A stretch of 64,000 nt of DNA, taken from assembly GCA_041667185.1 (NCBI GenBank), contig JBAYFM010000005.1:9285-73284 (forward strand), in the 5' to 3' direction. How positions within the stretch are numbered: position 1 is the stretch's first letter; every line of letters begins with the position of its first letter. Positions 4,688 to 53,805 of this stretch are shown here, one piece after another. Source of the DNA: Patescibacteria group bacterium (GTDB taxonomy: Bacteria; Patescibacteriota; Patescibacteriia; SG8-24). The translations under genes and the position numbers were made by a program. The notes beneath the pieces are model-generated. The model ran no database searches. It was not told the origin of the DNA and worked only from the letters and a program-made list of their open reading frames with translations.

Positions 4688-4880
4688 CGGGTGGAGTTAG
4701 GGAGAGGTGGAGAGTGCTGAAGTGCGGGAGTGCTGGAGTTTTTATCGGGTCTCCCGCACTCCCCCACTCCTGCACTCTCCCGTTCGTTGAATCGGGGAGA
4801 GACGAAGAGGCGGAGTCAGATAAGCACTCTGACTCCGTCTCTCCCTGACTCCGTCTCTCCCACACTCCCTCACCCCCTCA
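4688..4880. repeat. dispersed composite inverted-repeat element, copy A
   Basis: Module 1 has GGAGTGCTG/GGAGTGCGGGAG arms around a TTTTTATCGGGTCTCCC core. Module 2 has GAGACGGAGTCAG arms. Same family as copies at 33.5, 35.0, 40.9, 42.8, 52.7 and 53.7 kb. Confidence 0.65.
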
Positions 4881-4881
4881 C

Positions 4882-5628
4882 CTACGCCACCCTCGTCAGC
4901 GGCCCGAAATGATGAACGACATCCTTGCGTTCGACGACGATCTCCCAGCCCCGCCGCCGCGCGTGGCGGTAGAGCACCATGTTCGGATTGAAACAGATCG
5001 GCTGCTCCACGAGCTGCAGGAACCGGATGTCGGATTGCGTGTCGCCCACCCCGATCGATCCCTTGAGCGTCAGATCGTTCCGGGCGATGGCGCGGCGCAG
5101 GATGACCGCCTTGTCCGAGATCATGTCCAGGAACAGCGTCGTGCCGGTGAACCGGTTGTTCTTATCCACTTCGTAGATGCGGCCATAGACCTTGTCGAAG
5201 CCGAGCTTGGCGCAGAACGGTTTCAGCACCTCGCGCGGCGAATTGGAGATGGCCAGCAGGAAATAGCCTTTCTTCTTCAGGTCGCGCACGAGGTCGCGGG
5301 TATAGCGGTAGACGCGGTCCTTGTGGAAATCAACCACGCGCTCGGCGACGCGCATGAACACATCGCTGTCCACGCCTTTGATATGACCCTCGAAAGCCTT
5401 GATGACCCCGCCGATGTAATCATCGTAGTGCCCGGTGCGGTCGAGCCAGCGCTGGTAGGGCTTTTCATACATCTTGCGCAGCTTCTTCTTGAAGATGCCG
5501 GCGTGGATCAAAGCCTCGGTGATCTCGATGAGCAGGCTCGATCTGAAGATCGTACCGTCGATGTCGAAGATCGCCACTTTGCGCTGGCCGGAGGCTTTTT
5601 TCGGCTTAACGATGGTCTTTTTAGCCAT
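4882..5628 (-). CDS. HAD-superfamily hydrolase (HAD-IB / phosphoserine phosphatase-like)
   Basis: IFDIDGTI motif I (DxDGT). GVGDTQSD motif IV. Confidence 0.7.
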   Translation of the reverse strand: MAKKTIVKPKKASGQRKVAIFDIDGTIFRSSLLIEITEALIHAGIFKKKLRKMYEKPYQRWLDRTGHYDDYIGGVIKAFEGHIKGVDSDVFMRVAERVVDFHKDRVYRYTRDLVRDLKKKGYFLLAISNSPREVLKPFCAKLGFDKVYGRIYEVDKNNRFTGTTLFLDMISDKAVILRRAIARNDLTLKGSIGVGDTQSDIRFLQLVEQPICFNPNMVLYRHARRRGWEIVVERKDVVHHFGPLTRVA

Positions 5629-5777
5629 AAGTCGCTGGTCTTAGATTAACTTATCTTCATTATGTCGGTTCTCCCGGCCTGACGCAACCCGGACCGCGGA
5701 CAGCCTTGATTTATCGCCCCGGCCATGGCAGGCTGGGACCAGTTCATTTCTGAGCCCTTTCCCAAAGGAGAAACCTG

Positions 5778-6416
5778 ATGACGTTCAAACGTTGGTTCCT
5801 GTTTCTGATAGCCGCGGCATTCCTCTGCTTCTACGGAATATTGGCAGTCGTCGGCCTGCAGATGAAACAGCTCGAAAAAAATCTGGATGCCATCAGTAAG
5901 CAGATCGACCTGCTCGATAGTTCGATCTCCGCCGGCATGAGCGATCTCGACAGCCTGAACGGCTTCACCCTGAACCGCAATCAGCTCGATCTGATCGAGG
6001 GCTTGTCCCCAGCCGAGATCACCGGTTCCAGCTCGAATCATATCGTGCTGCCGGTCGACCAGCGGCTCATGAACGTCGTCTGGCTCTGCGAAGACCAGAA
6101 ACCTTGCGAGCCCTGGTTCCTGCTTCGCACCATGCAACTCAACGCCGTGGCCAAAAATTACCTGGTCTGGTCGCCGGACCTCGGAGTCAAGTACTTCATC
6201 TCCGAGAATCGCGACTCCGGTTACTGGCGCACCGAGAATATAGGCGTCCACCGATTGCCCATAGAACAACGTCTGGTCAGCGTGAGCTGGATCTGTCCGC
6301 CGGACGCGCCCTGCGAACTGTACCCGGTCACGCGCCACATGGAGCGCGGCGAACAGGCTCGTGGCTACACTTTCACTGACGGACATCGCGCTTTCTATAT
6401 CTGGGAAACCGAATGA
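5778..6416 (+). CDS. hypothetical membrane-anchored protein with internal duplicated Cys-containing module
   Basis: SD AAAGGAG upstream. N-terminal TM. HIVLPVDQRLMNVVWLCEDQKPCEPW and HRLPIEQRLVSVSWICPPDAPCELY are paralogous halves. Confidence 0.55.
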   Translation: MTFKRWFLFLIAAAFLCFYGILAVVGLQMKQLEKNLDAISKQIDLLDSSISAGMSDLDSLNGFTLNRNQLDLIEGLSPAEITGSSSNHIVLPVDQRLMNVVWLCEDQKPCEPWFLLRTMQLNAVAKNYLVWSPDLGVKYFISENRDSGYWRTENIGVHRLPIEQRLVSVSWICPPDAPCELYPVTRHMERGEQARGYTFTDGHRAFYIWETE

Positions 6417-6436
6417 CCAAAACGTCTCATAACTAA

Positions 6437-6468
6437 AGCCGGCCCCTGCTCGGGGACCGGCTTTTTTA
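6437..6468 (+). terminator. rho-independent terminator
   Basis: GCCGGCCCC-tgct-CGGGGACCGGC hairpin followed by a T6 tract. Lies between convergent genes. Confidence 0.5.
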
Positions 6469-6491
6469 TTTACTCGCTGAAACCACGGCCT

Positions 6492-7271
6492 CTACGGCGT
6501 CACCGGCTGCGGCTCCGCGGCGGTTCCGAGTACAGCCTTGAGATCGGCACGCGCTTTCTCCACAGCAGTCTTCCAATCGGTCATAGCCTTCTCGACCGCG
6601 GCGCGGCGGGTCTCGTTCAGCTTGACGACGTCCGGTCCGACCTTAGCGGCAGCCTGAACAGCCATCCGCATGTCGGCGCGAGCCTGCTCGACCGCGGCGC
6701 GCAACGTCTCGCGGACCAGCGTCTGGTCGGCCGAGGTCGAGCCACAACTCGCCTTGGCCGCGTCCTCGGCAGCCTTCATATCGCTCTGGAATTTTTTGAC
6801 CGCGGCGTCAATAGCGGTCTTGCGAGCGGCCTTGGCCGCGTCGATCCCCTGGCGAAAAGCCGTATTGGCGGCATCGACGGCGGCGCGCCTAACTTCGCCG
6901 GCGGTCCGGATCGCCGACTGAAACGCCATGATCGCCGTCTTTTGGGCGTCGCCGACGAACTTAACCTGCAGCCGCGCCGCGACCTCGACGCTCTTGGCAT
7001 CCTGTCCCGCGCGCAATTCCATGAGCTGTGCATCGCGTTCGCCGCGGCGCGTGGTCATTTGCTTGTCGACCTCGGCGCGTTTGGCGCCGAGACGCAAGGC
7101 ACGTTCGGCAATCTTGGCCGCGAACCGTTCACTGGCCAAGCGGGAATTCAAAGCCGTACAAAAATTACGCTGTCCGGACGCTGTGGGTGCCGGCTGCTGC
7201 GCCAGGACCGCGAGCGGCAGAATCACGCCGATAGTCAAACCGGCCGCGATCAAAAATTTATTTGACCTCAT
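6492..7271 (-). CDS. secreted Ala-rich alpha-helical hypothetical protein
   Basis: Start chosen at MRSNKFLIAAGLTIGVILPLAVLAQQ (signal peptide). Low-complexity A/K/E-rich body. Confidence 0.5.
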   Translation of the reverse strand: MRSNKFLIAAGLTIGVILPLAVLAQQPAPTASGQRNFCTALNSRLASERFAAKIAERALRLGAKRAEVDKQMTTRRGERDAQLMELRAGQDAKSVEVAARLQVKFVGDAQKTAIMAFQSAIRTAGEVRRAAVDAANTAFRQGIDAAKAARKTAIDAAVKKFQSDMKAAEDAAKASCGSTSADQTLVRETLRAAVEQARADMRMAVQAAAKVGPDVVKLNETRRAAVEKAMTDWKTAVEKARADLKAVLGTAAEPQPVTP

Positions 7272-7536: not shown

Positions 7537-7592
7537 AAACGCCTAACGATTAAGTATTATTTCAAGATGATCATACCACAAAAATATCCGCC

Positions 7593-8336
7593 TTGGACAT
7601 CCGGCGCCGGGCGGCTATAATGACTCGACCTGTTCCGATCCGTCACCTGAACACCATGCCGATCAGACATTTAGGGATCATCCTCGACGGTAATCGCCGC
7701 TGGGCGAAAGCCCAAGGACTGCCGACGCTTGAAGGCCACCGCCGCGGCTACGAGAACCTGAAGACCATCGGTCTGGCGGCCCTCGACCGCGGCATCGAGC
7801 ATTTCTCAGTCTTCGTCTTTTCGACGGAGAACTGGCAGCGTTCCGCCGAAGAGGTCGGCTATCTCATGGACCTGCTGCTCCGGGCACTCACGAGCGAGGT
7901 CGGATTTTTCGTCGAGCACGGGGTGCGTTTGCGGATCATCGGCTCCCGCGACCGCCTGTCAGCGAAAATGATCGAGGCGATCGCCGCCGCGGAAAAAACA
8001 ACCGCCGCCGGACAACGCGGCCAGCTCAACCTCTGTCTGAACTATGGCGGCCGGCTCGAGATCGTCGAAGCCGTGAAAAAACTCATCGCCGACGGGATCG
8101 CGCCCGAAGCCGTCGATGAGGCCGCGATCGCGTCCCGGACCTGGTCGGCCGGCATCCCGGAACCAGATCTCATCATCCGCACCTCGGGCGAACAGCGCTT
8201 GTCCGGTTTCCTGACCTGGTCCGGCGTCTACAGCGAACTGCTTTTCGTAGACAAAAACTGGCCGGATTTTTCCATCGCCGACCTAGAGGACGCGATCGAG
8301 GATTTCAGCGAACGTGAACGGCGCTTCGGACGTTAA
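7593..8336 (+). CDS. uppS: undecaprenyl diphosphate synthase (isoprenyl transferase)
   Basis: ILDGNRRWA, FSTENW and RTSGEQRLSGFL motifs. N-terminus carries a duplicated PIRHL segment, so the true start may be ~7656. Confidence 0.85.
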   Translation: MDIRRRAAIMTRPVPIRHLNTMPIRHLGIILDGNRRWAKAQGLPTLEGHRRGYENLKTIGLAALDRGIEHFSVFVFSTENWQRSAEEVGYLMDLLLRALTSEVGFFVEHGVRLRIIGSRDRLSAKMIEAIAAAEKTTAAGQRGQLNLCLNYGGRLEIVEAVKKLIADGIAPEAVDEAAIASRTWSAGIPEPDLIIRTSGEQRLSGFLTWSGVYSELLFVDKNWPDFSIADLEDAIEDFSERERRFGR

Positions 8337-11003: not shown

Positions 11004-11864
11004 ATGAGGTATCATGCCTCCAGCAAGCCTATGAACCACTTCCGCAAGCCGCGAAAATTCAACCGCTTTGAGAACCGCCGAGATAAACCGGCCGGTCCGC
11101 GCCCGAATGACCAGCGCCAGGGCTGGCAAAATGTCGCCGGCTGGTATTCGAATTATCTCGAAGGCGCGGACACTTACCAGGAAACTGTCGTCTTCCCGGG
11201 CGTCCTCAAATTGCTCGGACTCAAACCGGGCGTGAGCTGTCTCGACATCGCCTGCGGCGAAGGCTCGTTCGCCGCCAAACTGGCGGCCAGCCGCGTCCGC
11301 GTCACCGGCTTCGACGCCGCGCCGGCGCTCGTCGAGCGGGCCAAGCGGCACGTGCCGCAGGGCGAGTTCCTGGTCGGCGACGCGCAGCACTTTCCGGCCG
11401 CTCTCCGCGGCCGTGATTTCGACGCCGCGACCTGCATCCTGGCCATCCAGAACATCCCCGACGCCGCCGCGGTCCTGAAGGAAGCCGCCGCGATCCTGAA
11501 ACCCGGCGCGCCGCTGGTGCTGGTCACCAACCATCCCTGCTTCCGCATCCCCCGCCAGAGCTCCTGGGGTTTCGATGACGCCAACAAGACGCAATTCCGC
11601 CGCGTCGACCGTTATCTCACGCCGCTCGACGTGCCGATCATCATGAACCCGGGCCGCGGCCAGGGCCGTCCGGTCACGACCACGACTTACCACCGGCCGA
11701 TCTCGGCCTACATCGCCACGCTCGCCGCCGCCGGTTTCGTTGTCGACGCGCTCGAAGAATGGATCTCGAATCGCGTCAGCGACTCCGGGCCGCGCGCCAA
11801 GGCCGAGAACCGCGCCCGCGAAGAATTCCCGCTGTTCCTGGCGATCCGGGCGCGCCACAGATAG
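11004..11864 (+). CDS. class I SAM-dependent methyltransferase
   Basis: LDIACGEGSF motif I and downstream motifs. Confidence 0.65.
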   Translation: MRYHASSKPMNHFRKPRKFNRFENRRDKPAGPRPNDQRQGWQNVAGWYSNYLEGADTYQETVVFPGVLKLLGLKPGVSCLDIACGEGSFAAKLAASRVRVTGFDAAPALVERAKRHVPQGEFLVGDAQHFPAALRGRDFDAATCILAIQNIPDAAAVLKEAAAILKPGAPLVLVTNHPCFRIPRQSSWGFDDANKTQFRRVDRYLTPLDVPIIMNPGRGQGRPVTTTTYHRPISAYIATLAAAGFVVDALEEWISNRVSDSGPRAKAENRAREEFPLFLAIRARHR

Positions 11865-32492: not shown

Positions 32493-33491
32493 TCAGGCTA
32501 AATCAAAGGCCAAAGCCAGCGAGCCCCAGACGCCGCGTAGTCCGATATTCTCATCGATGAGTTTGCGCGCGGCGATGGCTGCCTCGAGGACGCGGACCGC
32601 GCCGGCGGTCTGGAGCGCATCCGACCAGGCCGTGAGCGCCGGCAGCGCATCAACGTGCACGATCTTCTCGCCCGCGCCAGCGGCCACGAGCAGGACATCG
32701 CGCAGCAGTTCGATGAGCAGATCAAGGATCCTGTGCCCCTCGACCGCCGCCTCGTTGAACGGAAGTTTTTCCGGCACCAAACTCTCGAGCAGGCGCCAGC
32801 GCTCGGTCGGACCGGCGGCAGCGAGCTGCAGCAGCTGGTTGCGGCGTTCGAGCAGCGCTTCGAGCGCCGCCGGTTCGCGCCAGAGTTCGATAGCCTTGCC
32901 CGGGCAGCCGGCGGCGAGACGCGCCAATAATTCAGATCGGCCGATCTCGCAGCCGAGGCTGCGCAGATGTTCGGCGATCGCCGCGGCGGCCACGCGGCCG
33001 AAAGTCAGCACCTGGCAGCGCGACCTGACCGTCGGCGAGACCGCGGCGGCGGACTCGGCGAGCAGGATGATCAGGGTCTTGTCTTTCGGTTCTTCGAGGC
33101 TCTTGAGCAGCGCGTTCCCGGCTTCTTTATTCAACAGCTCGGCTCCGTCGAGAATCACGACCTTCCAGACGCCGGCCATGGCGCCGAGCGCCAGCCAGCC
33201 GCGCAGCGCATGGACCTGATCGAGAACGATATCCGCGCGCAGCTTGTCGGTCTTGGGATCGCGCCCGCGCTCGACGACGCGGAAATCCGGATGGCGGTCG
33301 AGCGGTGTTTCCGCGCCCAGGACCAATTCGGCCGCGCGCCGGGCCGCGGCCATCTTGCCGATCTGCGCCGGACCGGCGAAAAGATAGGCGTGCGCCAGCC
33401 GACCGCGCGAAAAAGCCCGGCTGAGAAGCTCCAGGTTCTGCTCGTGGCCGATGACGGTTGAAGATTGCGGTCCGGAAACGGCAGATTTCAT
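32493..33491 (-). CDS. holB: DNA polymerase III subunit delta'
   Basis: AYLFAGPAQIGK P-loop-like. LNKEAGNALLKSLEEP. Confidence 0.8.
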   Translation of the reverse strand: MKSAVSGPQSSTVIGHEQNLELLSRAFSRGRLAHAYLFAGPAQIGKMAAARRAAELVLGAETPLDRHPDFRVVERGRDPKTDKLRADIVLDQVHALRGWLALGAMAGVWKVVILDGAELLNKEAGNALLKSLEEPKDKTLIILLAESAAAVSPTVRSRCQVLTFGRVAAAAIAEHLRSLGCEIGRSELLARLAAGCPGKAIELWREPAALEALLERRNQLLQLAAAGPTERWRLLESLVPEKLPFNEAAVEGHRILDLLIELLRDVLLVAAGAGEKIVHVDALPALTAWSDALQTAGAVRVLEAAIAARKLIDENIGLRGVWGSLALAFDLA

Positions 33492-33537
33492 ATCTTGGCT
33501 CTCCGCAGTATAGCACTGGCCTTTGGCTAATGGCTAT

Positions 33538-33627
33538 TAGGAGAGACGGAGTCAGGAAGAGACGGAGTCAGGGAGTGCTGGAGTGCTGGAGTTTTTGTCG
33601 GGTCTCCCCGACTTCGCAACTTCGCGA
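33538..33627. repeat. dispersed composite inverted-repeat element, copy B (left border of orphan island)
   Basis: GAGACGGAGTCAGG (x2), then GGAGTGCTGGAGTGCTGGAG, then TTTTTGTCGGGTCTCCCCGAC core. Confidence 0.65.
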
Positions 33628-33659: not shown

Positions 33660-33688
33660 TTGACAAGCAGCGATATTTCTGCTAAGTT
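33660..33688 (+). promoter_or_regulatory. candidate sigma70 promoter plus downstream palindrome GTCAC-tagcc-GTGAC
   Basis: TTGACA, 17-nt spacer, TAAGTT. Inverted repeat at 33694-33708. Confidence 0.4.
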
Positions 33689-33740: not shown

Positions 33741-33983
33741 ATGAACGCGAACACCAGACAGGTCTTCACAAGCAGCAGCGTTGGCGCGGAGAACAAGCCT
33801 GAAAAGACCCTTTCGCCAGACGACCTGCTCAAGGAGATTGCGGACTCAAGATGGAACCGGCTCAGCCACAACTCCCGGTGTGTCGACGCGCGAGCCAAGC
33901 TCATCATCAAGCGCTTGCCGCTCTGGTTCTACAAGGAACCAAACAAGAACTGGTTCTACAAGGAACCGATCAAGAAAGGTTGA
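33741..33983 (+). CDS. small hypothetical protein (80 aa) with C-terminal micro-duplication
   Basis: SD AGGAGG 6 nt upstream. The WFYKEPNKN / WFYKEPIKKG duplication is 27 nt long. Confidence 0.4.
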   Translation: MNANTRQVFTSSSVGAENKPEKTLSPDDLLKEIADSRWNRLSHNSRCVDARAKLIIKRLPLWFYKEPNKNWFYKEPIKKG

Positions 33984-34876: not shown

Positions 34877-34954
34877 GCACGACCGAAGTCTCATGGTTCC
34901 CGCCTCTAAGAGACCCCTGTTCCGTTCTGGAATGGGGGTCTTTTCAATTTAAAG

Positions 34955-35046
34955 AGAGAGTGCGGGAGTGCAGGAGAGACGGAGTTGGGGAGATTTGAGA
35001 ACTTCGTCTCTCCCTGACTCCGTTTCTCCCTGACTCCCCCACTCCT
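34955..35046. repeat. dispersed composite inverted-repeat element, copy C (right border of orphan island)
   Basis: GAGTGCGGGAGTGCAGGAGAGACGGAGTTGGGGAG ... CTCCCTGACTCCGTTTCTCCCTGACTCCCCCACTCC. Confidence 0.65.
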
Positions 35047-35049
35047 AAA

Positions 35050-35080
35050 AAGTGTCAGCCTCTTGACACTATTTTTTATA
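35050..35080 (+). terminator. candidate terminator
   Basis: AGTGTCAGCCTCTTGACACT hairpin followed by ATTTTTTA. Confidence 0.4.
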
Positions 35081-35130
35081 TCCCCTACTGTCCGAGTACC
35101 CATGGGTCATTTAATTCACCTAACCCCGCT

Positions 35131-39535: not shown

Positions 39536-40868
39536 TCACTGGCCGAACGGTTTGCGGAATTCGAACCATTGTTTGTCGAGCGCGTCGGTGAGATAAAGCG
39601 AGCCGTTCAAACTGATGTAGACGCCGTCGCGGCCCGGCGTCAGGAAGATATCCGACCGCGCCCAGTGCGTCAGCGGCCCGAACTCGAGGAACTTGTACCA
39701 GTCGCGGCCGTTCAGCGAAACGATGATCCCGAACTTGCCGGCGAAAGACGCGACCTCGTTGGCTTCGGTGTGGAACGCGGCGTAATAGACGCCGTTCCAG
39801 GTCAACAGGCTGTAAGTGTAGCCGGCATAACCGTACGTGACTGGACTCCAGACCTCCCGCAGCTTGTCGGCAGCCACGTCATACATCGCGATCCCGTGAG
39901 CCTGCAAGCGATCAGGTCCGAACAGGATCCCGGCATTATCTTTCATGATGGTCGCCGCCGTGAAGCCCTCGTCCCAGATCTGGCGCCAGGTCTTGCCGGC
40001 GTCTTTCGAGACGAGCGTGTAGCGGGCCACGTCGCCCGTGCCGACGTAGAGATCGCCGTCATGCCAAAACACAGCGTGCAGGTGGCGCAGCCGGAACCGG
40101 TCGTCGCCCGCGGCGTAAGTGACCGCGTCCTTGGGATAGAGCTGCTGAAAATCGATCCAGGGCGACCAAGTCAGGCCGTCGTCGGTGCTGCGGTACAGGA
40201 CCGCCTGATTGTAGGCGTGCTGCGTTCCGTAGATCGTACCGTTCCGGTCGTCGGCGATCGTCCAGAAAGTGCCGCCGATCTCTTTCGAGACCAGATCCCA
40301 ATTCTCGCCGACGTCGGCCGAGCGGTAGAGATCGCCCGGCAGGTCGAAATGCGCGTAGAGATTGCCGCGACTGTCGCCATCGAGGAAGATGTCGCCGGGG
40401 CGCTGATTCTCGTTCAGGACGCGCCGGACCGTCCCGTCATCGACGGACATCTTATAGATGGAACGCCAACCGTCGAATTCGACGACGGCCATGAGCAGCG
40501 AGCGGCTCGGGGCGTGAAAATAAATGCGGCCCACGTCGCCGATCGCTGGCGCGACGGTAATCGGCCGGAGGCCCTGGGAATTGATCTGCCCGATCGTGGC
40601 GCGCGGCAAGGGCGGCGGTTCCGGCGTCGGCGGCACGGCCTCCTCGATCGTGATCGGCGGCGTTTCGGGAGCGGCGGTTTCGGCCGCCGGTGCAGTGGCG
40701 GGTTCGGCAGCAGGCGGCGGTCCGGCGACCTCTTTCTGGGGTGCGGCCGGAGCGATGACCGTCGGCCGCGACGAAAAAACGAACAACCCGGCGGCTGCGG
40801 CAAACAAGACCGCGACCAGGAGCGCAAGCAGGACGTCAATTGGTTTGAGCTTGAACATAAAAGATCCT
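39536..40868 (-). CDS. membrane-anchored BNR/Asp-box repeat protein
   Basis: Start at MFKLKPIDVLLALLVAVLF (TM). Asp-box-like SADVGENW, STDDGLTW and SKDAGKTW. Upstream extension of the listed ORF is a translation of repeat D. Confidence 0.55.
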
Positions 40869-40887
40869 GGTTTCAGCTTAACATAAT

Positions 40888-40962
40888 TTGGGAGAGTGCT
40901 GGAGTGCGGGAGAGACGGAGTCACGTCGTTCGCGAACGACGTGACGGAGTCATGGAATTCTG
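40888..40962. repeat. dispersed composite inverted-repeat element, copy D
   Basis: GGAGAGTGCTGGAGTGCGGGAGAGACGGAGTC plus perfect 26-nt palindrome GTCACGTCGTTCGCGAACGACGTGAC. Confidence 0.6.
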
Positions 40963-40965
40963 CGG

Positions 40966-40997
40966 AATTGAAAAAGCTCGCTCCGGACGGAGCGAGC
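40966..40997 (-). terminator. rho-independent terminator
   Basis: Minus-strand GCTCGCTCC-gtcc-GGAGCGAGC followed by TTTTTC. Confidence 0.45.
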
Positions 40998-41007
40998 TCA
41001 AGGTAGG

Positions 41008-42546: not shown

Positions 42547-42653
42547 GAAAGCCTCCTTGTTTTTGGATTTTTAAGGAACTTTTAGGCGGAAAAGGGCCGA
42601 TTTACCCCTTACCGCAACATACTATTTAAGCACAAAATAGGCCGTTTGTCAAT

Positions 42654-43036
42654 GAGGGGAGTGCGGGAGAGACGGAGTTGGGAAGAGACGGAGTCAGGGA
42701 GTGCTGGAGTGCGGGAGAAATGGAGTTATCAAAACTCCCCCACTCCTCCACTCCCGCACTCTCCCATTCATTGGATCAGAGAGATGCGGAGAGACGGAGA
42801 TACGGAGTGCTGGAGTACTGAAGTGCTGGAGAGACGGAGTCACGTCGCTCGCGAACGACGTGGCGGAGTGCTGGAGTACTGGAGTTCTGGAGAGACGGAG
42901 TATCAAAACTCCCCCACTCCTCCACTCCCGCACTCTCCCGTTCAGTGGATCAGAGAGATGCGGAGATACGGAGTACTGGAGTACTGAGATGCTGGAGAGA
43001 CGGAGTCACGTCGCTCGCGAACGACGTGACGGGGTT
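42654..43036. repeat. dispersed composite inverted-repeat element, copy E (two tandem ~175-bp units)
   Basis: Each unit has module-1 arms around an ATCAAAACTCCCCCACTCC core, module 2, and palindrome GTCACGTCGCTCGCGAACGACGTG(A/G)C. Confidence 0.7.
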
Positions 43037-46410: not shown

Positions 46411-46675
46411 GGCGGCTTTGTCAAAAGAAATAGCCCCATCCCTGCGGGATGAGGCTCTTTCTTATGGTGGGTCGGCTGCCGGGGATTCCTCCTCCCCCAC
46501 CGCTCGCTACTTGGGGCCCCTGCCCCAAGTGCTCACGGCTCCTCCGGAGCCCGCCGCTCCGCAACGCACCATACTAGGTGCGTTGGCGGAGTCGGCTTCG
46601 AATCCCAGACGACCCTGCGCAAAAGAAATAGCCCCATCCCTGCGGGATGAGGCTCTTTCTTATGGTGGGTCGGCT
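46411..46675. repeat. att-like 57/58-bp direct repeats (tRNA-Lys 3' end plus terminator) flanking a 150-bp structured segment
   Basis: 46411-46467 and 46618-46675 are near-identical (CAAAAGAAATAGCCCCATCCCTGCGGGATGAGGCTCTTTCTTATGGTGGGTCGGCTG). The intervening DNA has four or more GC hairpins. Confidence 0.6.
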
Positions 46676-46738
46676 GGGATTCGAACCCAGGACCATCAGC
46701 TTAAAAGGCTGTTGCTCTACCAGACTGAGCTACCGACC
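46662..46738 (-). tRNA. tRNA-Lys (anticodon TTT)
   Basis: GGGTCGGTAGCTCAGTCTGGTAGAGC... anticodon loop CTTTTAA. T-loop GGTTCGAATCC. CCA encoded. Confidence 0.9.
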
Positions 46739-46777
46739 CATAACGAACTGGTTGTTGTCGAACTAACCGTCTTTATT

Positions 46778-47037
46778 TGTTGCTCTACGACGCAGTTCAG
46801 TCGCTCTGCGACTGAACATTACAGATGCGCGGCTAAGGCCGCAACTCATCGTCGCAAGCCGTACTATCGGACGAACGGAGTCGCCGCGGCGGCGAAGTTC
46901 TGTTCGGCGGCTTACGACGCAGTTCAGTCGCTCTGCGACTGAACATTACAGATGCGCGGCTAAGGCCGCAACTCATCGTCGCAAGCCAGCATTAAAGTCC
47001 ATCTTCTTTCAGAATCAAGCTGGCTTACCAGACTGAG
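46778..47037 (-). pseudogene. partial 5' copy of tRNA-Lys split at the D-loop TA by a 229-bp insert
   Basis: Minus strand reads GGGTCGGTAGCTCAGTCTGGTA (47016-47037), then an insert (46787-47015), then TAGAGCAAC (46778-46786). TA is duplicated at both junctions. Confidence 0.45.
46787..46983. repeat. two 73-bp direct repeats, each folding into a two-hairpin dumbbell, separated by 51 bp
   Basis: Copies 46787-46859 and 46911-46983 are identical (CGACGCAGTTCAGTCGCTCTGCGACTGAAC...GCGCGGCTAAGGCCGC...CGTCGCAAGCC). Confidence 0.6.
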
Positions 47038-47223
47038 CTACCGACCCATGACGACGCTGTTTTTGATTTTGTCCGTCTCACATCAAACCGCTTGCCACCC
47101 GCAGATCCGCAGGAGTGGAGGGTGGGGCTACCGACCTATAACGAACGAACTTTATCGAAAACGCGGAGGAAGCGTAACAAAATCCCCCGCGTTCATCAAC
47201 TCTCTTCCAAAACGCCTACCGAT

Positions 47224-49720: not shown

Positions 49721-52096
49721 TCAAGCCGCTTTCTGGCCCGTATCGCGGTAAGCCTCGTCCATCCGGCCGCGCGTCGAGATCAGCAGTTCCCGCTCCCGGT
49801 TGGCCTGCTCCAGACGCGCCGCCAAATTGATGATCTTGGCGTCTTTGGCGCTCGATTCCTGTCTGACCGACCCGAGTTCCTGCTCCAGATCGCGGATCTT
49901 GGCGTGGACCTCGATCATCCGGTCGACCAGTTCGCGCTTGTTGTCCCAGACGTTATGCGCCGTTTCCGCCTGCCGGTCGACGTAGGCGCGGATCTCAGAT
50001 TCGAGATCCTCGAAACTCCGGCCGCTCTCCACCCAGGCGTCCAACTTGTCCTTGCCGCCCTGTTCGGCGAAGATCGCTTTCTTGGAAAAATCCGTCCGGG
50101 CATCGACCTGGCTCTTGAAAAGAGCATCGGCCTGATAAGCCGGATCGCGCCGCTCGCCGATCAGCAGCTTGAACCGCGAGACCGCTTTCTCCTGTTCGAT
50201 GTCCATGTCGGCGATCTTGGTCATGAGATCGGCTTTGACGTTCCACAAGCGTTCCGGATCATCCTCGAGCTCGGCCTTATCCAACCGGCCGGCGGTCGCC
50301 AGATCCTCGAAAACCTGTTCCATGAACGCCGTGTCGCAGCTGCCGGTATTGAAGTTGAGTTTGGTCGGGGCGTACTCGGGCTGGGAACGCGGCCCGCGCG
50401 GCACCCGTCCCTTGGCATCGCGCAGCTCGGCGATCTTCTTCATGACCTTGGCGACCTCATCCATGCCCCCGTCGATCTGCAGGGTGTATTCGTCGCCGCC
50501 ATACCGGAACGCGCGCCCTTCGACGCCGGCCTCCTCGATCGCCTGCTCCATGATCTGCGCGGCCAGCCGCGTGGCGGCGTCGCCGATCTCCGTGCCGCCT
50601 TTCTGATCGAAATACTTGAGGAAGGCCATGTCCACGAAAACGACCGAGACGTCCTTGCCCTCCTTGAGCGCCTGGCCCAAATTTTCATAATGCACGCCGC
50701 GATCCTGGAGCCCGGTGCTCGCGTCGCTCTTGGTCCGTTCGACTTCGTATTCCAACCGGAGCAATTCCGCTTCTTTGCCTTCGCCGGCGGCGTCAGCCGA
50801 CTCCTTGAGTTCGGCCAACCGGCGCAGACCTTTCAGGTCGCCGCCCTCCGGGATCTTCGCGATGCGCTGCTTCTCGCCGGTCTCGTCTTCGCCGGCCTCC
50901 TCGAATTTCGGCCGGCCATCGGCGCGGGCCTTCAACCGGCGCTGGATGATCTCCTGCTCGACTTTGTTCACCCGCCGCGCTTCGAAGATCCGGATGTTGG
51001 CGGCTTCTTCGGCCAGATCCCTAGTCCGCTCCGGGGATAATTTCAGAATGCTCTCGACCGTCACAGCGCCGGCGGGATCCTCCTTCAGGCCCTCGACGTT
51101 GCTGAGGCCTTTTTTCAGATAATTCTCGAAGATCTTGGCGGCGTGCTCGACGCCCTGTTCCGCCGCGGCCGTCTGGAGACGCTGAATGCGGCCGGCAAAC
51201 TTGGCCTTTTCCAGGGAATGGTTCGCCATGTTCTTCACGAGATCCACCAGCTCGCGCGCCGCGTCCTCGCCGGCATCGAGGCGTTCGGATCCGGCGGCCA
51301 GCTGCGATTCGTTGAGCAGCCCGACCGCGTCCTTGAAATTCAGCCCGACCGCGGCGACCGGAGCCGCTTCGGCGACGCCCTCCACCCGCGGCTTGGCGGC
51401 GTTGACCTCGGCCATGATCTCCTGGAAATCCTGCTCGTCGATGTCGCTGAAATCGACCATGAACTCGTTGGCGTCGTAGCGCAGGAGCGTGTAATCGGCC
51501 TGGTGATCCGGCTTGTCGCGCAAACGGTCCCGCACGATCCTCTCGATCGTCCGCGCGGTCTCGGTGAGCGCCGCGTCGCCGGCCGCGTGGCCGCCGCCTT
51601 CCTTATTGAACCGGTCGAGCTCGCCCATGTTGACGACCAGCAACCGGCGCCGCTCCTGGCTCGCGTCCAGCGCGAACTCGCCGTTCTCGCGCTGTTCGAT
51701 CGCGGCCCGTTCCTGGCCTTCCGCGCGCTTGAACAGATCCTGCGTCTCGCGGCCGAATCGCTTGAACTTGAAAGCGCCCGAAGCGTCGCGCTCGGCGTTG
51801 AACAGTTCCAGTTTTTTCTCGCTGATCGAGGCGGCAAGCGCGGCGTCCGCGAGCTCCAGGCGCTTTTCTTCGAGCGCTTCCGCGAGCCCGGCTTCGGCGC
51901 CGTGGCCGACCTGCGACTGATCGATCCGGGACAACTCGTCGGTCAGGGACCGCTTCTTGTCCTGCGAGCCGGCCAGGCCGGCTTCCAGCTTCAACTTCTC
52001 CTGGTAGCCGGTCAGGCCGCCGAACTTGGCAATCTCCGACTCCTCTTCGGCCGAAAGGGCCTCGCGCTTATTTTCCAGCTTGGGATCTGGCGACAT
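49721..52096 (-). CDS. large coiled-coil protein with two GGDEF-like (nucleotidyl cyclase palm) domains, the first degenerate
   Basis: Domain 1 is VVNMGELDRFNKEGGGHAAGDAAL...RYDANEF (GGDEF changed to DANEF). Domain 2 is VFVDMAFLKYFDQKGGTEIGDAATRL...RYGGDEY. Confidence 0.65.
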   Translation of the reverse strand: MSPDPKLENKREALSAEEESEIAKFGGLTGYQEKLKLEAGLAGSQDKKRSLTDELSRIDQSQVGHGAEAGLAEALEEKRLELADAALAASISEKKLELFNAERDASGAFKFKRFGRETQDLFKRAEGQERAAIEQRENGEFALDASQERRRLLVVNMGELDRFNKEGGGHAAGDAALTETARTIERIVRDRLRDKPDHQADYTLLRYDANEFMVDFSDIDEQDFQEIMAEVNAAKPRVEGVAEAAPVAAVGLNFKDAVGLLNESQLAAGSERLDAGEDAARELVDLVKNMANHSLEKAKFAGRIQRLQTAAAEQGVEHAAKIFENYLKKGLSNVEGLKEDPAGAVTVESILKLSPERTRDLAEEAANIRIFEARRVNKVEQEIIQRRLKARADGRPKFEEAGEDETGEKQRIAKIPEGGDLKGLRRLAELKESADAAGEGKEAELLRLEYEVERTKSDASTGLQDRGVHYENLGQALKEGKDVSVVFVDMAFLKYFDQKGGTEIGDAATRLAAQIMEQAIEEAGVEGRAFRYGGDEYTLQIDGGMDEVAKVMKKIAELRDAKGRVPRGPRSQPEYAPTKLNFNTGSCDTAFMEQVFEDLATAGRLDKAELEDDPERLWNVKADLMTKIADMDIEQEKAVSRFKLLIGERRDPAYQADALFKSQVDARTDFSKKAIFAEQGGKDKLDAWVESGRSFEDLESEIRAYVDRQAETAHNVWDNKRELVDRMIEVHAKIRDLEQELGSVRQESSAKDAKIINLAARLEQANRERELLISTRGRMDEAYRDTGQKAA

Positions 52097-52197
52097 ATGC
52101 CTTAATTATCGGTTAAAAACGGCTTCGTGTCAAAGCGGTGCGGCGCTGAAAAATCCCCCGGCTGGCGCCCGATGGGCAGATAAAAAAAGCGACCATC

Positions 52198-52488
52198 TCA
52201 GAGAGGGTCGCTCAGCATCTGCTTGAGTCTGGCGAGAACCATTTTGCGCCGGCCGCCTAGTATCGGCCGAAGCCTTTCGACCAGCTGGCTGACCTCGTCA
52301 TCGGAAAGATGATCGATGTCGGCGTGGCTGAGCGGTTCTTGGCGCGGCAGGATCTCGCGCACGAGTCGAAGCGAATCGTCGAAATTGCTCGAGTGATCCG
52401 GATGATAGAGCATCCGGAGGAGTTCCTGACGCGCTGTCAGCTCCGGAACCTGATCGGTCGTTGATCGCGGATGTCGAGAAGCGCACAT
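52198..52488 (-). CDS. small hypothetical protein
   Basis: 96 aa. No motif. Could start at an internal Met. Confidence 0.35.
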   Translation of the reverse strand: MCASRHPRSTTDQVPELTARQELLRMLYHPDHSSNFDDSLRLVREILPRQEPLSHADIDHLSDDEVSQLVERLRPILGGRRKMVLARLKQMLSDPL

Positions 52489-52597
52489 GGTCTGCCGCCT
52501 TTCTGGGCTTCGTGGCCTGAGATTGCGTAAGGTCCGACTCCGGCGAGGATCGCCAGAGAACCAAAAAAGCTAGCAAAAAATTTCAGTGTTGTCAAGG

Positions 52598-52836
52598 GGG
52601 GTGAGGATGCAGAAGTGCTGGAGTGCGGGAGTTCGGAAGTGCGGGAGTACAGGAGTTTTTGTCGGGTCTCCCCGACTCCAGAACTTCAGTACTCCAGGAC
52701 AGGTGCCTGACACCGAAGGACTCAGGAGTGCGGGAGTTCGGAAGTGCTGAAGTGCTGGAGTTCGTGTCTGGTCTAACTGACTCCAGCTCTCCAGCACTCC
52801 AGAACTTCAGAACTTCAGATTCCCGTTCATAAAGAA
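52598..52836. repeat. dispersed composite inverted-repeat element, copy F
   Basis: GGAGTGCGGGAGTTCGGAAGTGCGGGAG...GGAGTTTTTGTCGGGTCTCCCCGACTCC core ... CCCGTTCATAAAGAAAAGCGCC terminus. Confidence 0.65.
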
Positions 52837-52886
52837 AAGCGCCGGGCCGCGAGTGTGCGGTCCGACGCTGAAGTGTAACGAGAACG

Positions 52887-53633
52887 TCAGATTTCCGAAC
52901 TGGTTTGATCTTGCTTGTCTTTGGCTATGAGCCAGCGGCCAAGATGCCGCCAGATGTCGAGGCGTGTCAACAACATGACCAATCCGTAGACCAGACCGAA
53001 GCCCAAACCAAGGACCAGGACGTAGACCAGACTGTAAACCAGACCATAGACTAGACCTAAGCCCAAACCGAGGACTAGGCCGGGGACCAGACCGAAGCCC
53101 AAACCAAGGACTAGGCCGGGGACCAGGACGTAGACCAGGCCATAGACCAGACCATAGACCAGACTGTAGACCAAGCCGTAGACCAGACCGAGGACCAATC
53201 CGTAGACCAGACCGAAGCCCAAACCAAGGACTAGGCCGGGGACCAGGACGTAGACCAGGCCGTAGACCAGGCCAGGGACCAGACCGATGATCAGACCAAC
53301 GATCAAGGCACTTTGAAGATCATCCTCAATGCTTGATCGAATGGTTACAACCAGCACGATGAGAGCGGCCAAGATAGCTGCCGCTGGCACGTCCCACCAG
53401 CGGGAGACAGCGAAAGGCAACTCTAGCGTCCAGTTTTCTGCTATTGGAATGATGGCTGTCGAGGGCACCGAACCGGTGCACAGGTACCAGACCGTCCAGA
53501 AAGCGGCAGTCAGACTCGCGGCCCGAAGGGCCCATTTGAAGAAAATCCGAGCCAGTTTTCTCTTTGGAATCATTTGACGCTCCTTTGTCGTTTGTGAAGG
53601 TTCAAGATCCGCACGCAAGATGCGGGCCACCAT
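52887..53633 (-). CDS. membrane protein made of ~25 tandem GLVY/GLVP/GLGF tetrapeptide repeats
   Basis: Two N-terminal TM helices, then (GLV[YP]GLVxGLG[FL])n for ~110 aa, then a short charged tail. The internal MIPKRK is an alternative start. Confidence 0.6.
   Translation of the reverse strand: MVARILRADLEPSQTTKERQMIPKRKLARIFFKWALRAASLTAAFWTVWYLCTGSVPSTAIIPIAENWTLELPFAVSRWWDVPAAAILAALIVLVVTIRSSIEDDLQSALIVGLIIGLVPGLVYGLVYVLVPGLVLGLGFGLVYGLVLGLVYGLVYSLVYGLVYGLVYVLVPGLVLGLGFGLVPGLVLGLGLGLVYGLVYSLVYVLVLGLGFGLVYGLVMLLTRLDIWRHLGRWLIAKDKQDQTSSEI
52975..53290. repeat. tandem 12-nt coding repeat (GTAGACCAGACC variants) with ~120-nt higher-order units
   Basis: Direct inspection. The unit GACCGAAGCCCAAACCAAGGACTAGGCCGGGGACCAG recurs three times. 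Confidence 0.6.
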
Positions 53634-53667
53634 TTATTATCATTACAATGCTGTTTGGTCAATTATC

Positions 53668-53805
53668 GGAGTACGGGAGTGCTGAAGTACTGGAGGACTG
53701 AAGTGCTGAAGTGCTGGAGTGCTGGAGTCGGGGAGACCAGACAAAAACTCCTGTACTCCCTCACTCCAGTACTCCCCCACTCCCGCACTCTCCCGTTCAT
53801 AAAAA
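53668..53805. repeat. dispersed composite inverted-repeat element, copy G (inverted relative to F)
   Basis: GGAGTCGGGGAGACCAGACAAAAACTCC is the reverse complement of the F core. The terminus CCCGTTCATAAAAAAGCGCC overlaps the murG stop codon. Confidence 0.65.

Follow-up and report, generated by a model that had tools for sequence, protein, structure and literature searches.

Octanucleotide-based mosaic repeats in the intergenic spacers of a Patescibacteria genome: a possible new REP/BIME-like family

RESULTS

Seven Intergenic Sites Share Modules Built from an 8-nt Unit

The 64-kb stretch of DNA analyzed here (the window) belongs to a metagenome-assembled genome of the Patescibacteria (candidate phyla radiation). 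Seven intergenic sites in it (E1–E7, Table 1), amounting to nine to ten hairpin modules, are built from the 8-nt unit GGAG(T/A)NNN. Each module has a GGAG array at its 5′ end and a complementary NNN(A/T)CTCC array at its 3′ end, an arrangement that allows extrusion of an imperfect hairpin or cruciform with a mismatch roughly every 8 nt. Three modules recur and are combined in varying orders between sites: module A (GAACGGGAGAGTGC... plus the core GTCGGG-GAGA-CCCGAC), module B (GGAGAGAC/GGAGTCAG units), and module C (a 26-nt palindrome nested within an array). Period-8 arrays were detected by TRF at all seven sites, and motif counts greatly exceed chance expectation (GGAGTGCKGGAG occurs 14 times in the window against 0.08 expected). 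The module copies align as one family with the consensus CAATGAACGGGAGAGTGCGGGAGTGGAGGAGT.GGGGAGACCCGACAA.AACTCC...; ten loci fit a single consensus for module A, and segments from different loci are 80–94% identical across 63–133 nt.

The original prediction of a dispersed seven-copy family is therefore upheld, although several of its details were wrong. The tandem dimer placed at 42.8 kb is real (a 166-bp repeat at 42687–43032 by TRF), and the second module attributed to most copies has its GAGACGGAGTCAG arms at five of the seven sites; GCACTCTCCCGTTCA is present in E1, E5 (twice), and E7. The core hairpin, said to be in every copy, was found within three mismatches at only four sites (E1, E2, E6, and E7), and in E7 the core and its loop are inverted relative to the other copies. 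The perfect 26-nt palindrome credited to three copies occupies three positions in two sites (E4 once, E5 twice), with the copy at 40920 the sole perfect one. The proposed conserved terminus "AAAAGCGCC" does not mark an end of the element: at 53.8 kb it codes for the last residues of murG (..GAFL*), and at 52.83 kb it forms the tail of an intrinsic terminator. Long hairpins, expected of every copy, are predicted for E1, E3, E5, E6, and E7 (z = −3.6 to −8); E2 and E4, each a half element whose array is confined to a single side, form none.

Table 1. Repeat elements and associated features in the window
Feature	Position	Strand	Description	Setting
E1	4688–4885		Two adjacent hairpin modules	Entire spacer between HAD-family gene (4882–5628, −) and C39 peptidase gene (4203–4664, −)
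E1 module A	about 4700–4790		Carries core hairpin	
E1 module B	about 4793–4870		Arms GGAGAGAC/GGAGTCAG	
E2	33535–33625	+	Half element: G-type array (GGAGAGAC, GGAGTCAG, GGAGTGCT) and small core hairpin, no CTCC arm	Divergent spacer, holB (32493–33491, −)/promoter 33660–33688
E3	34952–35048		One long hairpin, −61.8 kcal/mol, z = −8	Terminator 34911–34945/conserved promoter hairpin GTGTCAGCCTCTTGACAC (35062–35090)
E4	40885–40955		G-type array, then perfect 26-nt palindrome GTCACGTCGTTCGCGAACGACGTGAC	Downstream of terminator 40974–40999 (−); upstream of true start of BNR gene (40858)
E5	42655–43035		166-bp tandem dimer: palindrome, arrays, module-A hairpin	Ends 7 nt upstream of conserved promoter 42624–42652 (−)
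E6	52598–52830		Hairpin modules 52612–52700 (with core hairpin) and 52722–52822	Directly after terminator 52831–52869 (−); ends 2 nt from −35 TTGACA (52590–52595) of 96-aa gene
E7	53660–53796		Long hairpin, −67.5 kcal/mol	Starts at murG stop codon
Junction terminator	53801–53824	−	GCGTCGGCGGTCTGGCGC, then T6	
Repeated intrinsic terminator	52831–52869	−	AGCGTCGGACCGCACACTCGCGGCCCGGCGCT, then TTTCTTT	
GLV-repeat membrane-like ORF	52887–53573	−		Flanked by E7 and E6
BNR/Asp-box protein gene	39536–40858	−	Inserted together with E4	

Copies of the family extend beyond the window. At least 25 more were found in 112 kb of metagenome contigs, mostly from one sample (compared with seven sites in the 64 kb of the window). 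Unit order differs between every pair of copies, and each metagenome copy is a different mosaic. The two tandem copies within E5 differ by exactly one 8-nt unit indel, and pure arrays of 13–14 identical units occur at three loci (L144, L218, and L049). Similar arrays with the same head-to-head architecture are present in many other phyla, where the two arms differ systematically (e.g., GGAGTGAT versus GGAGTACT).

The Elements Lie between Transcription Units

On a GC3-based gene map (85% coding density), all seven sites are intergenic, as originally predicted. Of the 35 regions detected, 30 are non-coding, even though most of the loci concerned are 77–91% coding. Immediately ahead of E3, E4, E6, and both copies at locus L204 there is a separate canonical intrinsic terminator, and recognizable terminators also precede the elements at L129, L160, and L158. 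Where flanking signals are recognizable, the element sits between the terminator (or stop codon) and the −35 box of the next promoter, which many copies abut. The GGAG elements, originally thought to occupy the place of the terminator, are not themselves the terminators, since a separate terminator or stop codon precedes them; most copies thus fall in poorly transcribed spacer. E7, E5, and E1 have no independent terminator between stop codon and element, apart from the junction terminator at murG. At the two L204 sites, near-identical copies of the terminator AGCGTCGGACCGCACACTCGCGGCCCGGCGCT are joined to "ATGAACGGGAGAGTGC" or module B, and the junction of terminator and module A recurs at three loci.

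The Elements Are Absent from Related Genomes with Conserved Gene Order

The window was compared with relatives L226 (MurG 79% identical), L227 (63%), L225/L228 (65%), and L230. No GGAG element was found in about 62 kb of their sequence, orthologous spacers included. Because these four related genomes retain the gene order (GT4/512-aa/translin/Mur ligase ... holB, and murG/96-aa/GGDEF) but not the elements, the elements are, on this sequence comparison, lineage-specific insertions relative to them. The case for gain, as opposed to loss in all relatives, is one of parsimony, backed by the arrangement at murG. In L226, L227, and L225, murG ends with a TGA stop codon that forms part of the next promoter's −35 box, TTGACA. 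The window has a 1.2-kb block (E7, the GLV ORF, a terminator, and E6) inserted between GGTCT and TGACA; this insertion lengthens murG by four codons and leaves the old promoter intact downstream. The junction terminator has a 5′ arm of ancestral murG coding sequence; its 3′ arm and T-tract, together with the last four murG codons, arrived with the insertion. The left junction shows only the microhomology GCGG(T/C)C. Ancestral sequence could be reconstructed at two junctions, and neither showed a target-site duplication or a clean terminal inverted repeat. The promoter next to E5 is conserved with L230 and the promoter hairpin next to E3 with L228. Contigs of the same species are all identical, so no ongoing mobility was observed. 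Intergenic spacers of L228 contain small heptamer/octamer arrays unrelated to the GGAG elements.

Two window-specific genes adjoin elements. The GLV-repeat ORF (its start that called on the identical ENA contig) lies between murG and the 96-aa gene and is missing at four loci from three related organisms (L225, L226, and L227; window-identical copies excluded). The BNR gene and E4 are inserted between the 512-aa gene and translin, which are adjacent or nearly so in L228 and L230, where both the BNR gene and E4 are absent. Pairs of copies had been proposed to bracket two gene cassettes. This holds for 52.6–53.8 kb, where the gene is missing from three relatives, and is weaker for 33.5–35.0 kb, where the 216-aa ORF is probably a diverged ortholog of the gene at that position in relatives.

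Searches for Partner Enzymes and Known Families

No window ORF matched a transposase family, in agreement with the claim that the copies encode no transposase, and no transposase, RAYT, or integrase was seen in the window or beside any copy in the visible fraction of the genomes. Nor was an RHH or other small DNA-binding gene detected in the window. The Rfam search suggested with the original prediction returned only sub-threshold matches to eukaryotic miRNA hairpin models. The repeats gave no plasmid or phage match, and no published sequence matching them was found. The repeats have neither a GTAG nor a CGTC tag, and where CGTC does occur in them, it is always part of the stem of the 26-nt palindrome. 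The predicted "REP/MITE-like, non-autonomous" character is thus retained as non-coding, non-autonomous, high-copy intergenic DNA. Formal membership of either class was rejected, given the lack of a GTAG/CGTC tag and of a target-site duplication at the two reconstructable junctions, and with no partner transposase seen.

DISCUSSION

The repeats behave like selfish intergenic DNA of the REP/BIME type yet match no described family. We hold with about even confidence that they are lineage-specific, non-coding, non-autonomous mosaic intergenic repeats with a REP/BIME- or NIME-type role and a different construction. The best reading is a new REP/BIME-like family, with copying as its means of spread and unit slippage as its source of diversity. 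Copies would be pasted into new intergenic sites; the insertion itself is shown, and it might be carried out by a hairpin-recognizing enzyme encoded elsewhere in the genome, or by recombination and gene conversion after DNA uptake. Judging from the positions of the copies, survivors would be confined to spacers bounded by a terminator or stop codon on one side and the next −35 box on the other, because these compact genomes have no other neutral space. Copies would then diversify through slippage that adds or removes entire 8-nt units and also through loop inversion and nesting; a single unit indel and a single flipped loop were seen. Finally, dispersed homologous copies may act as junctions at which new genes are recombined in, as a by-product, and copies are indeed associated with new genes.

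The main competing explanation, which we consider unlikely, is that the arrays are binding sites for a small DNA-binding protein, for example an RHH protein of the ParG/omega/MetJ type. One 4–5-bp box (ACTCC/GGAGT) per 8 bp would be coated cooperatively, giving an insulator, a nucleoid-organizing site, or a promoter-upstream complex between transcription units, and the hairpin potential would be incidental. The unit does consist of an invariant GGAG(T) core with 3–4 free positions. The arms of the modules are not simple complements of each other: the GGAG core pairs at 67–89% of positions and the variable positions at only 56–64%. The GGAG-first (head-to-head) polarity is nearly invariant (34 of 37). 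Such weak pairing and strict polarity suggest a conserved sequence box more than a conserved hairpin, and the systematic arm differences in other phyla and the contact of many copies with the next −35 box fit the same picture. ParG of TP228 has the same period and nearly the same box (PMC3130281), and paired octanucleotides in Geobacter have been interpreted as global-regulator sites (PMC2700814). However, arrays are missing from the orthologous spacers of relatives and are therefore not conserved regulatory sites, and stretches of 60–130 nt, "free" positions included, are common to unrelated loci, which argues for copying rather than local selection. The spacers are GC-rich, as opposed to AT-rich in parH, and no candidate gene for the protein was found in the window. 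This reading implies tens to hundreds of sites per small genome; the RHH arrays known so far are limited to one or two loci.

Could the repeats instead be recombination sites that capture genes, in the manner of integron attC sites or of Neisseria NIME and minimal mobile elements? The GLV and BNR genes, the recurrent terminator–module A junction, and the presence of microhomology alone at the left murG junction speak for such a gene-cassette system. We nevertheless think it improbable: the neighbors of most copies (E1, E3, E5, and many in the metagenome) are ordinary conserved genes rather than cassettes, neither an integrase nor a recombinase was seen, and the 216-aa "cassette" gene is probably a resident gene that has diverged. 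From just two associations, cause is not distinguishable from co-occurrence at permissive sites.

A function in RNA, with UTR hairpins that terminate or insulate transcription, stabilize the upstream mRNA (as some REPs do), or yield a small RNA, is in our judgment very unlikely. The predicted hairpins are long and stable, they lie downstream of genes, and E7, E5, and E1 have, murG junction aside, no terminator of their own ahead of the element. Against this, many elements follow a recognizable terminator, no T-tract follows the element hairpins, E2 and E4 have no long hairpin, and no Rfam family matches. Which of the two strands folds more stably does not depend consistently on the direction of transcription, and there is no G-U versus A-C asymmetry.

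A purely local origin, in which independent microsatellite-like 8-mer expansions acquire an inverted arm by template switching and nothing moves between sites, agrees with the pure arrays, the E5 indel, and the unrelated arrays of L228 but is already hard to hold, and we regard it as highly improbable, as complex non-repetitive parts, among them the GAACGGGAGAGTGC boundary, the GTCGGGGAGACCCGACAAAAA core, the 26-nt palindrome, and the GATCCAATGAAC linker, are shared at 80–94% identity by numerous unrelated loci.

Comparison with Known Systems

Size (70–380 bp), inverted symmetry, and non-coding, intergenic, multi-copy occurrence recall MITEs, but the repeats have no defined terminal inverted repeats, target-site duplication, or parent insertion sequence, and their mosaic structure sets the copies apart from diverged descendants of a single master. 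In cyanobacterial STRRs, 7-nt units are arrayed in tandem between genes, frequently in inverted form, and small palindromes are nested in the arrays; STRRs differ in unit length (7 versus 8 nt), sequence, and phylum. In Neisseria, a naturally transformable organism, intergenic mosaic elements (dRS3/RS arrays) and minimal mobile elements are recombination substrates. There too, mosaic arrays of short intergenic repeats lie where the gene content of strains differs. The sequences and unit structure are different, however, dRS3 being a CGTC-tagged REP and phage integration target. Clustering of Neisseria dRS3 has been noted (PMC3733652).

REPs, BIMEs, and REPINs are likewise high-copy, non-coding, and extragenic, mostly between unidirectional genes (PMC3733652, PMC3116915). 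They share the head-to-head pairing of units with potential for larger hairpins, the mosaic arrangements, and the lineage-specific distribution typical of mobile DNA. REPs are single 20–40-bp palindromes with an unpaired GTAG or CGTC tag, the GTAG REPs having a RAYT partner (PMC3733652, PMC3116915). Unlike REPs, the repeats described here have arms that are arrays of 8-nt units, with no tag and no RAYT seen.

Operators of other RHH proteins include the heptads of omega and the 8-bp metboxes of MetJ. ParG of plasmid TP228 binds arrays of 8–20 degenerate 5′-ACTC-3′ boxes with 4-bp spacing; the boxes are found both direct and inverted, and each takes one dimer (PMC3130281). ParG-parH/OF therefore shares with our arrays a 4–5-bp box (ACTC) every 8 bp, both orientations, and a location upstream of a promoter. 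ParG-type arrays occupy one locus per replicon beside the cognate gene and have AT-rich spacers, whereas the repeats in the window are at many dispersed loci with GC-rich spacers and no cognate gene in view.

The closest described thing, compared by description rather than by sequence, is the set of "class 1/class 2 global regulator binding sites" of Geobacter metallireducens (Aklujkar et al., 2009; PMC2700814). Those sites have been catalogued only and interpreted as IHF/HU sites; their arrays are much shorter, the insertion sequences ISGme8 and ISGme9 keep a constant distance from class 1 sites, and neither composite modules nor a core hairpin nor any comparison with relatives was reported (PMC2700814). 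They too are opposite-strand pairs at variable distance, each of 3–4 tandem octanucleotides, in dozens of species-specific intergenic copies, and the class 2 unit TCTCCGTS is nearly identical to the ACTCCGTC/TCTCCCTG unit of the window (PMC2700814).

Construction and Folding of the Elements

The seven intergenic sites (E1–E7) constitute a real, abundant, non-coding repeat family. In the window, GGAGTGCKGGAG occurs 14 times against an expectation of 0.08, GAGACGGAGTCAG (with at most one mismatch) occurs 10 times against 0.11, and the boundary pattern GAGAGTGCNGGAGTGNNGGAG occurs six times against 0. Reading of the sites, together with Tandem Repeats Finder (TRF), resolved all seven into 8-nt units, GGAG(T/A)NNN. 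A weight matrix of the unit from 45 arrays gave G.92, G.95, A 1.0, G.99 and T.73/A.24, after which come three variable positions. The 5′ arm consists of runs of GGAGNNNN and the 3′ arm of runs of NNNNCTCC; arrays contain 3–14 such units, and hairpin lengths range from 60 to 140 nt. The CTCC-arm in the window reads ACTCCGTC TCTCCCTG ACTCCGTC TCTCC.

Three hairpin building blocks (modules A, B, and C; see the table) recur in the elements, whose outer ends are asymmetric, with the module A boundary on one side only. The original prediction had named failure to align as one family as the result that would count against it; alignment of module A copies from ten loci gave a single consensus, so the motifs do align as one family. 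Some details needed correction. The core hairpin, expected in each copy, is present at four of the seven sites and missing from the remaining three, and it is inverted in E7. The 26-nt palindrome, described as perfect in three copies, does occur at three positions, but these are confined to two sites and only one is perfect.

Positions and sequences of the elements, their modules, and neighboring features
Feature	Position (nt)	Description	Terminator before element	Promoter
E1	4688-4885
E2	33535-33625
E3	34952-35048		34911-34945	TTGACA-N17-TACTGT, after element
E4	40885-40955		40974-40999
E5	42655-43035	tandem dimer		TTGACA-N17-TTAAAT, 7 nt from element end
E6	52598-52830		52831-52869	TTGACA-N17-TAGCTT, 2 nt from element end
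E7	53660-53796			TTGACC-N17-TAATAA, after element
Module A		boundary GAACGGGAGAGTGC + core GTCGGG-GAGA-CCCGAC, then A5
Module B		16-nt period GGAGAGAC GGAGTCAG
Module C		26-nt palindrome nested within array
80-aa ORF	33741-33983	27-nt tandem repeat (WFYKEPNKN twice)
BNR-repeat gene	39536-40858	E4 at head
57-nt direct repeat	46422-46478, 46620-46676	perfect, 198 nt apart
tRNA-Lys	46663-46739	minus strand
79-nt direct repeat	46782-46860, 46910-46987	98.7% identical
tRNA-like 5′ half	47028-47050 region	minus strand, GGGTCGGTAGCTCAGTCTGG...
GLV ORF	52887-53573	minus strand
GLV ORF interior	52977-53305	12-, 24-, and 120-nt tandem repeats encoding GLVYGLV...
lon	56023-58467	between mraY and ftsW

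Long hairpins of −44 to −68 kcal/mol (z −3.6 to −8) form in E1, E3, E5, E6, and E7; E2 and E4 carry a one-sided array, and the long hairpin does not form. When both strands were folded, the stability of either showed no consistent bias with respect to the direction of transcription. Across 23 folded modules, Watson-Crick pairing reached 67%–89% at the GGAG core positions but just 56%–64% at the variable positions, and arm mismatches are spaced about every 8 nt. Arm complementarity is only moderately maintained. The lack of a consistent strand bias and the weaker pairing of the variable positions thus give no sign of selection on RNA structure, and a function at the RNA level is among the less likely explanations of the elements.

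Elements Lie between a Terminator and the Next Promoter

Genes were mapped from GC3 and Pfam scans, with one start-codon correction. All seven sites are non-coding in a window that is 85% coding, and the repeat family takes up about one-eighth of the window's non-coding DNA. The copies had been thought to sit where a terminator is expected; E3, E4, and E6 are instead placed after a terminator, not at it. The elements do not fit the definition of an intrinsic terminator: no T-tract directly follows the element hairpins, and E3, E4, E6, and both copies in L204, a metagenome locus, have canonical terminators of their own upstream. The order gene, terminator, element, TTGACA promoter, gene occurs twice in L204. 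A crude scan of 23 elements in unidirectional context found an abutting terminator in at least 12 and a TTGAC promoter in at least seven, both lower bounds. The elements occupy the stretch that separates a terminator or stop codon from the promoter of the following gene.

Predicted −10 elements lie within a few nucleotides of the first ATG of the listed ORF at 4664 (window 4660–4700) and 53633 (53631–53665, minus strand), which suggests leaderless mRNAs or mis-called starts. The ENA gene call starts the GLV ORF at a downstream ATG (53573) that has an AAGGAG ribosome-binding site.

Elements Are Insertions Relative to Related Genomes

The MurG and 512-aa proteins of the window are identical to proteins encoded by a "Patescibacteria group bacterium" MAG (locus tags WCT10_) and have homologs in Uhrbacteria/Parcubacteria-type CPR bacteria. 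Four related genomes were compared: L226 (MurG 79% identical), L227 (63%), L225/L228 (65%), and L230 (GCA_037916955.1). Gene order is preserved in all four. No GGAG elements were found in ∼62 kb of the relatives, from which arrays of period 7/8 are nearly absent as judged by TRF.

The junction at murG is informative. In L226, L227, and L225, murG ends inside the next promoter: its stop codon TGA belongs to the −35 sequence TTGACA of a small conserved gene, whose orthology was checked. This overlap of a coding end with a promoter (L226, 1920–1960; L227, 5120–5150; L225, 11085–11120) is extreme compaction. In the window, ...GGTCT and TGACA... are separated by an inserted block (53796 down to 52598) that contains E7, the GLV-repeat ORF, a terminator, and E6. 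The ancestral promoter is kept intact beyond E6, murG is extended by GAFL*, and a new terminator is formed by pairing of the incoming GGCGC-T6 with GCGTCGG of murG itself. This accounts for the apparent terminus AAAAGCGCC, which is not an element end. The terminator-plus-ATGAACGGGAGAGTGC junction is seen again at 52.83 kb and in L204, so the copied unit can include a terminator.

Flanking sequences elsewhere are also shared. The promoter just downstream of E5 is common to the window and L230 (TTGACAAAC.GCCT.ATTTGTG.TTAA.T), and E3 is flanked by a terminator and a promoter hairpin, the latter common to the window and L228. The elements are, therefore, insertions relative to the related genomes. 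The relatives reveal the ancestral sequence at the murG/96-aa and GT4/512-aa junctions, and no target-site duplication flanks the insert at either. An IS200/IS605-like specificity for a TTGACA/GTCAA target was considered and is unsupported, since the distance from element to −35 ranges from 0 to 40 nt.

Other differences from the relatives were noted. Because mraY, ftsW, and murG are contiguous in L225 and L227, the placement of lon marks a further rearrangement of the cell-wall gene cluster that is specific to this lineage. The GT4-to-512-aa spacer of L228, which corresponds to the E5 spacer, carries the heptamers ACTCTAA/ACTTTAG with an inverted partner (7842–7875), and (CTTCACGT)×2.8 lies just upstream of the Mur ligase gene in the same locus (11080–11101).

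Abundance, Probable Copying, and Unit-Wise Length Change

A scan of metagenome contigs with the boundary pattern returned 101 loci, of which 13 (112 kb; 10 from sample Ga0172379) contain the same modules. These 13 hold about 25 further elements, nearly all non-coding, in addition to the seven sites in the 64 kb window. Non-coding DNA accounts for 30 of 35 detected regions; both flanking genes could be assigned for 30 regions, and in 26 of these the two genes are unidirectional. The GAACGGGAGAGTGC end is co-directional with the flanking genes in six of seven cases, too small a sample to support a conclusion. Protein matches between the Ga0172379 organism and the window organism are at the paralog level only.

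The order of units differs in every element, each being its own mosaic of units and modules. Despite this, segments of 63–133 nt are 77%–94% identical between loci. Copying between sites is therefore required, and purely local expansion is a less likely origin of the family. Length does change unit by unit: the tandem copies of E5 differ by one exact 8-nt indel. Pure arrays of 13–14 identical units, further evidence for slippage by whole units, occur in L144, L218, and L049, the last from a distant CPR MAG. No strain polymorphism was seen among same-species contigs (ENA, JGI, Logan), which are identical save for one run of N; Logan contigs terminate within E4, E5, and E7. In L049 (1333–1510; Patescibacteria MAG STA_55, MurG 57% identical to that of the window), a start codon is immediately preceded by a pure (AGCACTCC)14 array, which adjoins a small hairpin, GGAGGAA-CCCCGACAA-TTCCTCC, resembling the core hairpin of the window.

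Head-to-Head Arrays in Other Phyla

One genome per species was scanned for GGAGTRCKGGAGTRCKGGAG, which gave at least 120 loci in many phyla. The scan favors GGAGT by design, and the generality of the GGAGT box is for that reason not established. Architecture and polarity do recur across loci: among the matches listed, 37 loci have a partner array no more than 250 nt away, and in 34 of these the GGAGT-array is 5′ and the ACTCC-array 3′. Among these same matches, 18% of the 34 paired loci fall in long stop-free spans versus 80% of random positions, and several loci hold two or three copies with ordinary housekeeping genes between them. The module A profile recognizes hairpins of other-phyla loci, and the construction is seen again in Deltaproteobacteria, Verrucomicrobia, Planctomycetota, Gemmatimonadota, and other phyla, again among the matches listed.

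Some of these loci share further sequence. L009, L094, and L113 (MAGs of Syntrophobacterales and other Deltaproteobacteria) have a conserved ∼50 nt before the GGAGT octamer arrays (..aggtcaa..ggctttgcc..ctgtttt), and L037 and L116 (Kiritimatiellae) have ∼100 nt of internal sequence in common between the arms. Both groups are composite elements built to the same plan and specific to their lineages.

Association with Gained Genes

Pairs of copies had been proposed to bracket gene cassettes. This link is partly supported: what stands is an association of the elements with two gene gains; the cassette at 33.5–35.0 kb is less clear. The BNR-repeat gene is inserted between the 512-aa gene and the translin gene, which are neighbors in L228 and L230. 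The 216-aa ORF at 33.5–35.0 kb has no homolog but itself in a large database, and direct comparison gave a weak C-terminal match to a 190-aa gene at the same position in the relatives. This match suggests that the ORF is a diverged ortholog of the 190-aa gene; as a possible resident of the locus, it weakens the cassette. A dedicated cassette-capture system is a less likely reading.

The GLV ORF has a GC3 of 0.65, below that of its neighbors, and no Pfam match; it may be a young gene grown out of a tandem repeat. The 80-aa ORF between E2 and the 216-aa ORF likewise has no Pfam match, and no counterpart was found in the related loci.

A separate group of repeats surrounds tRNA-Lys. The second copy of the 57-nt direct repeat overlaps the 3′ end of the tRNA gene, and the pair resembles either an att-type duplication that a small integration event left behind or the 3′ end of the tRNA and its terminator duplicated in place. 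The 79-nt direct repeat lies downstream of tRNA-Lys. The tRNA-like 5′ half, not called by ARAGORN, could represent tRNA remnants or an interrupted tRNA.

Interpretation

We favor, with confidence that is evenly balanced against doubt, the reading of the elements as a REP/BIME-like repeat family. Such a family would spread by copying, through some hairpin-recognizing enzyme or through recombination after DNA uptake. It would survive only in the one neutral slot of compact genomes, and its dispersed copies would be used as recombination junctions.

The main rival, which on our analysis is unlikely, holds that the conserved feature is a protein-binding box of 8-bp period in the style of ParG and other RHH proteins. 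Strict polarity and the poorly paired variable positions are better accounted for by such a box than by a REP/BIME-like family, whereas it explains less well why orthologous sites lack the elements and why long segments are shared. In a broader reading that we consider improbable, the window would show one instance of a many-phyla class of unrecognized intergenic elements in which the box and not the pairing is conserved, serving as a binding platform or as mobile-element ends. Its members would be head-to-head 8-bp boxes (GGAGT plus three free bases) of near-invariant polarity. The platform would be that of a widespread DNA-binding protein, an RHH-like "coat" that insulates neighboring transcription units; alternatively, the arrays would be the ends of a superfamily of mobile elements. 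If this broader reading were true, arrays in streamlined CPR genomes would also mark the entry points of new genes.

Because Patescibacteria/CPR genomes are considered small and streamlined, a family that takes up such a share of non-coding DNA, at sites of lineage-specific gene gain, is unexpected. It offers a handle on gene acquisition by CPR genomes. Because the repeats break short-read assemblies, as the ends of the Logan contigs illustrate, they are probably under-reported in MAGs. They are also built in an unusual way, from an 8-nt box that leaves three or four positions free, arranged strictly head-to-head and with a mismatch about every 8 nt. A partner protein or enzyme, once found, would account for a widespread class of unexplained intergenic DNA.

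Comparison with Known Repeat Classes

The original prediction of a REP/MITE-like non-autonomous family is partly supported: the elements are non-coding and multi-copy, but they conform to the formal definition of neither class. A REP is a 20–40-bp palindrome with an unpaired GTAG or CGTC tag (PMC3733652). The elements resemble REPs in being extragenic, in high copy, and mostly between unidirectional genes. They are unlike a single imperfect palindrome of that length, and only the module C palindrome is REP-sized. They have no tag: GTAG is not found at module boundaries, and CGTC occurs only in the paired stem GTCACGTCG..CGACGTGAC. A reading of the 26-nt palindrome as a CGTC-REP was rejected because it fails the published definition (PMC3733652). 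No RAYT (IS200/IS605-type Y1 transposase) was found among ∼60 window ORFs scanned against Pfam. MITEs have terminal inverted repeats and a target-site duplication; the outer ends of the elements are asymmetric, and no duplication is seen at the two junctions of known ancestral sequence. MITE copies derive from one master, itself a deletion derivative of an IS, whereas the elements are all different mosaics. An autonomous element, with arrays 0.4–4 kb apart enclosing a transposase, was also considered and rejected; the enclosed ORFs are purL-like, ClpX-like, glycosyl hydrolase, amidohydrolase, and similar, and genes between distant arrays are housekeeping genes, with no transposases.

Only five tRNAs in the window reached the gathering score in Rfam 15. 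At gathering and E-value thresholds, the elements matched no Rfam family, and what hits they gave, to models of eukaryotic miRNA hairpins, were sub-threshold. E5 had no match when compared by BLAST with plasmid and phage collections. Full-text literature searches with the repeat strings returned no relevant paper, and searches on octamer repeats and STRR turned up only Geobacter genome papers.

Two other published systems were compared. ParG of plasmid TP228 binds arrays of degenerate ACTC boxes with 4-bp spacers, direct and inverted, one RHH dimer per box (PMC3130281). The elements match this type of array, in which a degenerate 4–5-bp box recurs every 8 bp in both orientations; the period is identical and the box almost so. 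ParG arrays have AT-rich spacers at a single locus, whereas the elements have TGCT, TGCG, AGAC, and TCAG at many dispersed loci, and no RHH or ParA gene adjoining them was found in Pfam scans of the window. Geobacter metallireducens contains dozens of intergenic pairs of 3–4 tandem octanucleotides that lie on opposite strands and have the unit sequences GTTGCTYN and TCTCCGTS; the paper put them forward, untested, as binding sites of IHF/HU-like global regulators (PMC2700814). Similar "multicopy nucleotide sequences" are present in G. bemidjiensis (PMC2996986). In the searchable literature, such arrays appear only as catalog entries, listed as "putative global regulator sites" for G. metallireducens. 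The elements have the features of the class 2 sites (at least three tandem TCTCCGTS octanucleotides, paired across strands at variable distance, intergenic and multi-copy), a resemblance of pattern only, compared by description. These paired octanucleotides are the closest description in the literature.
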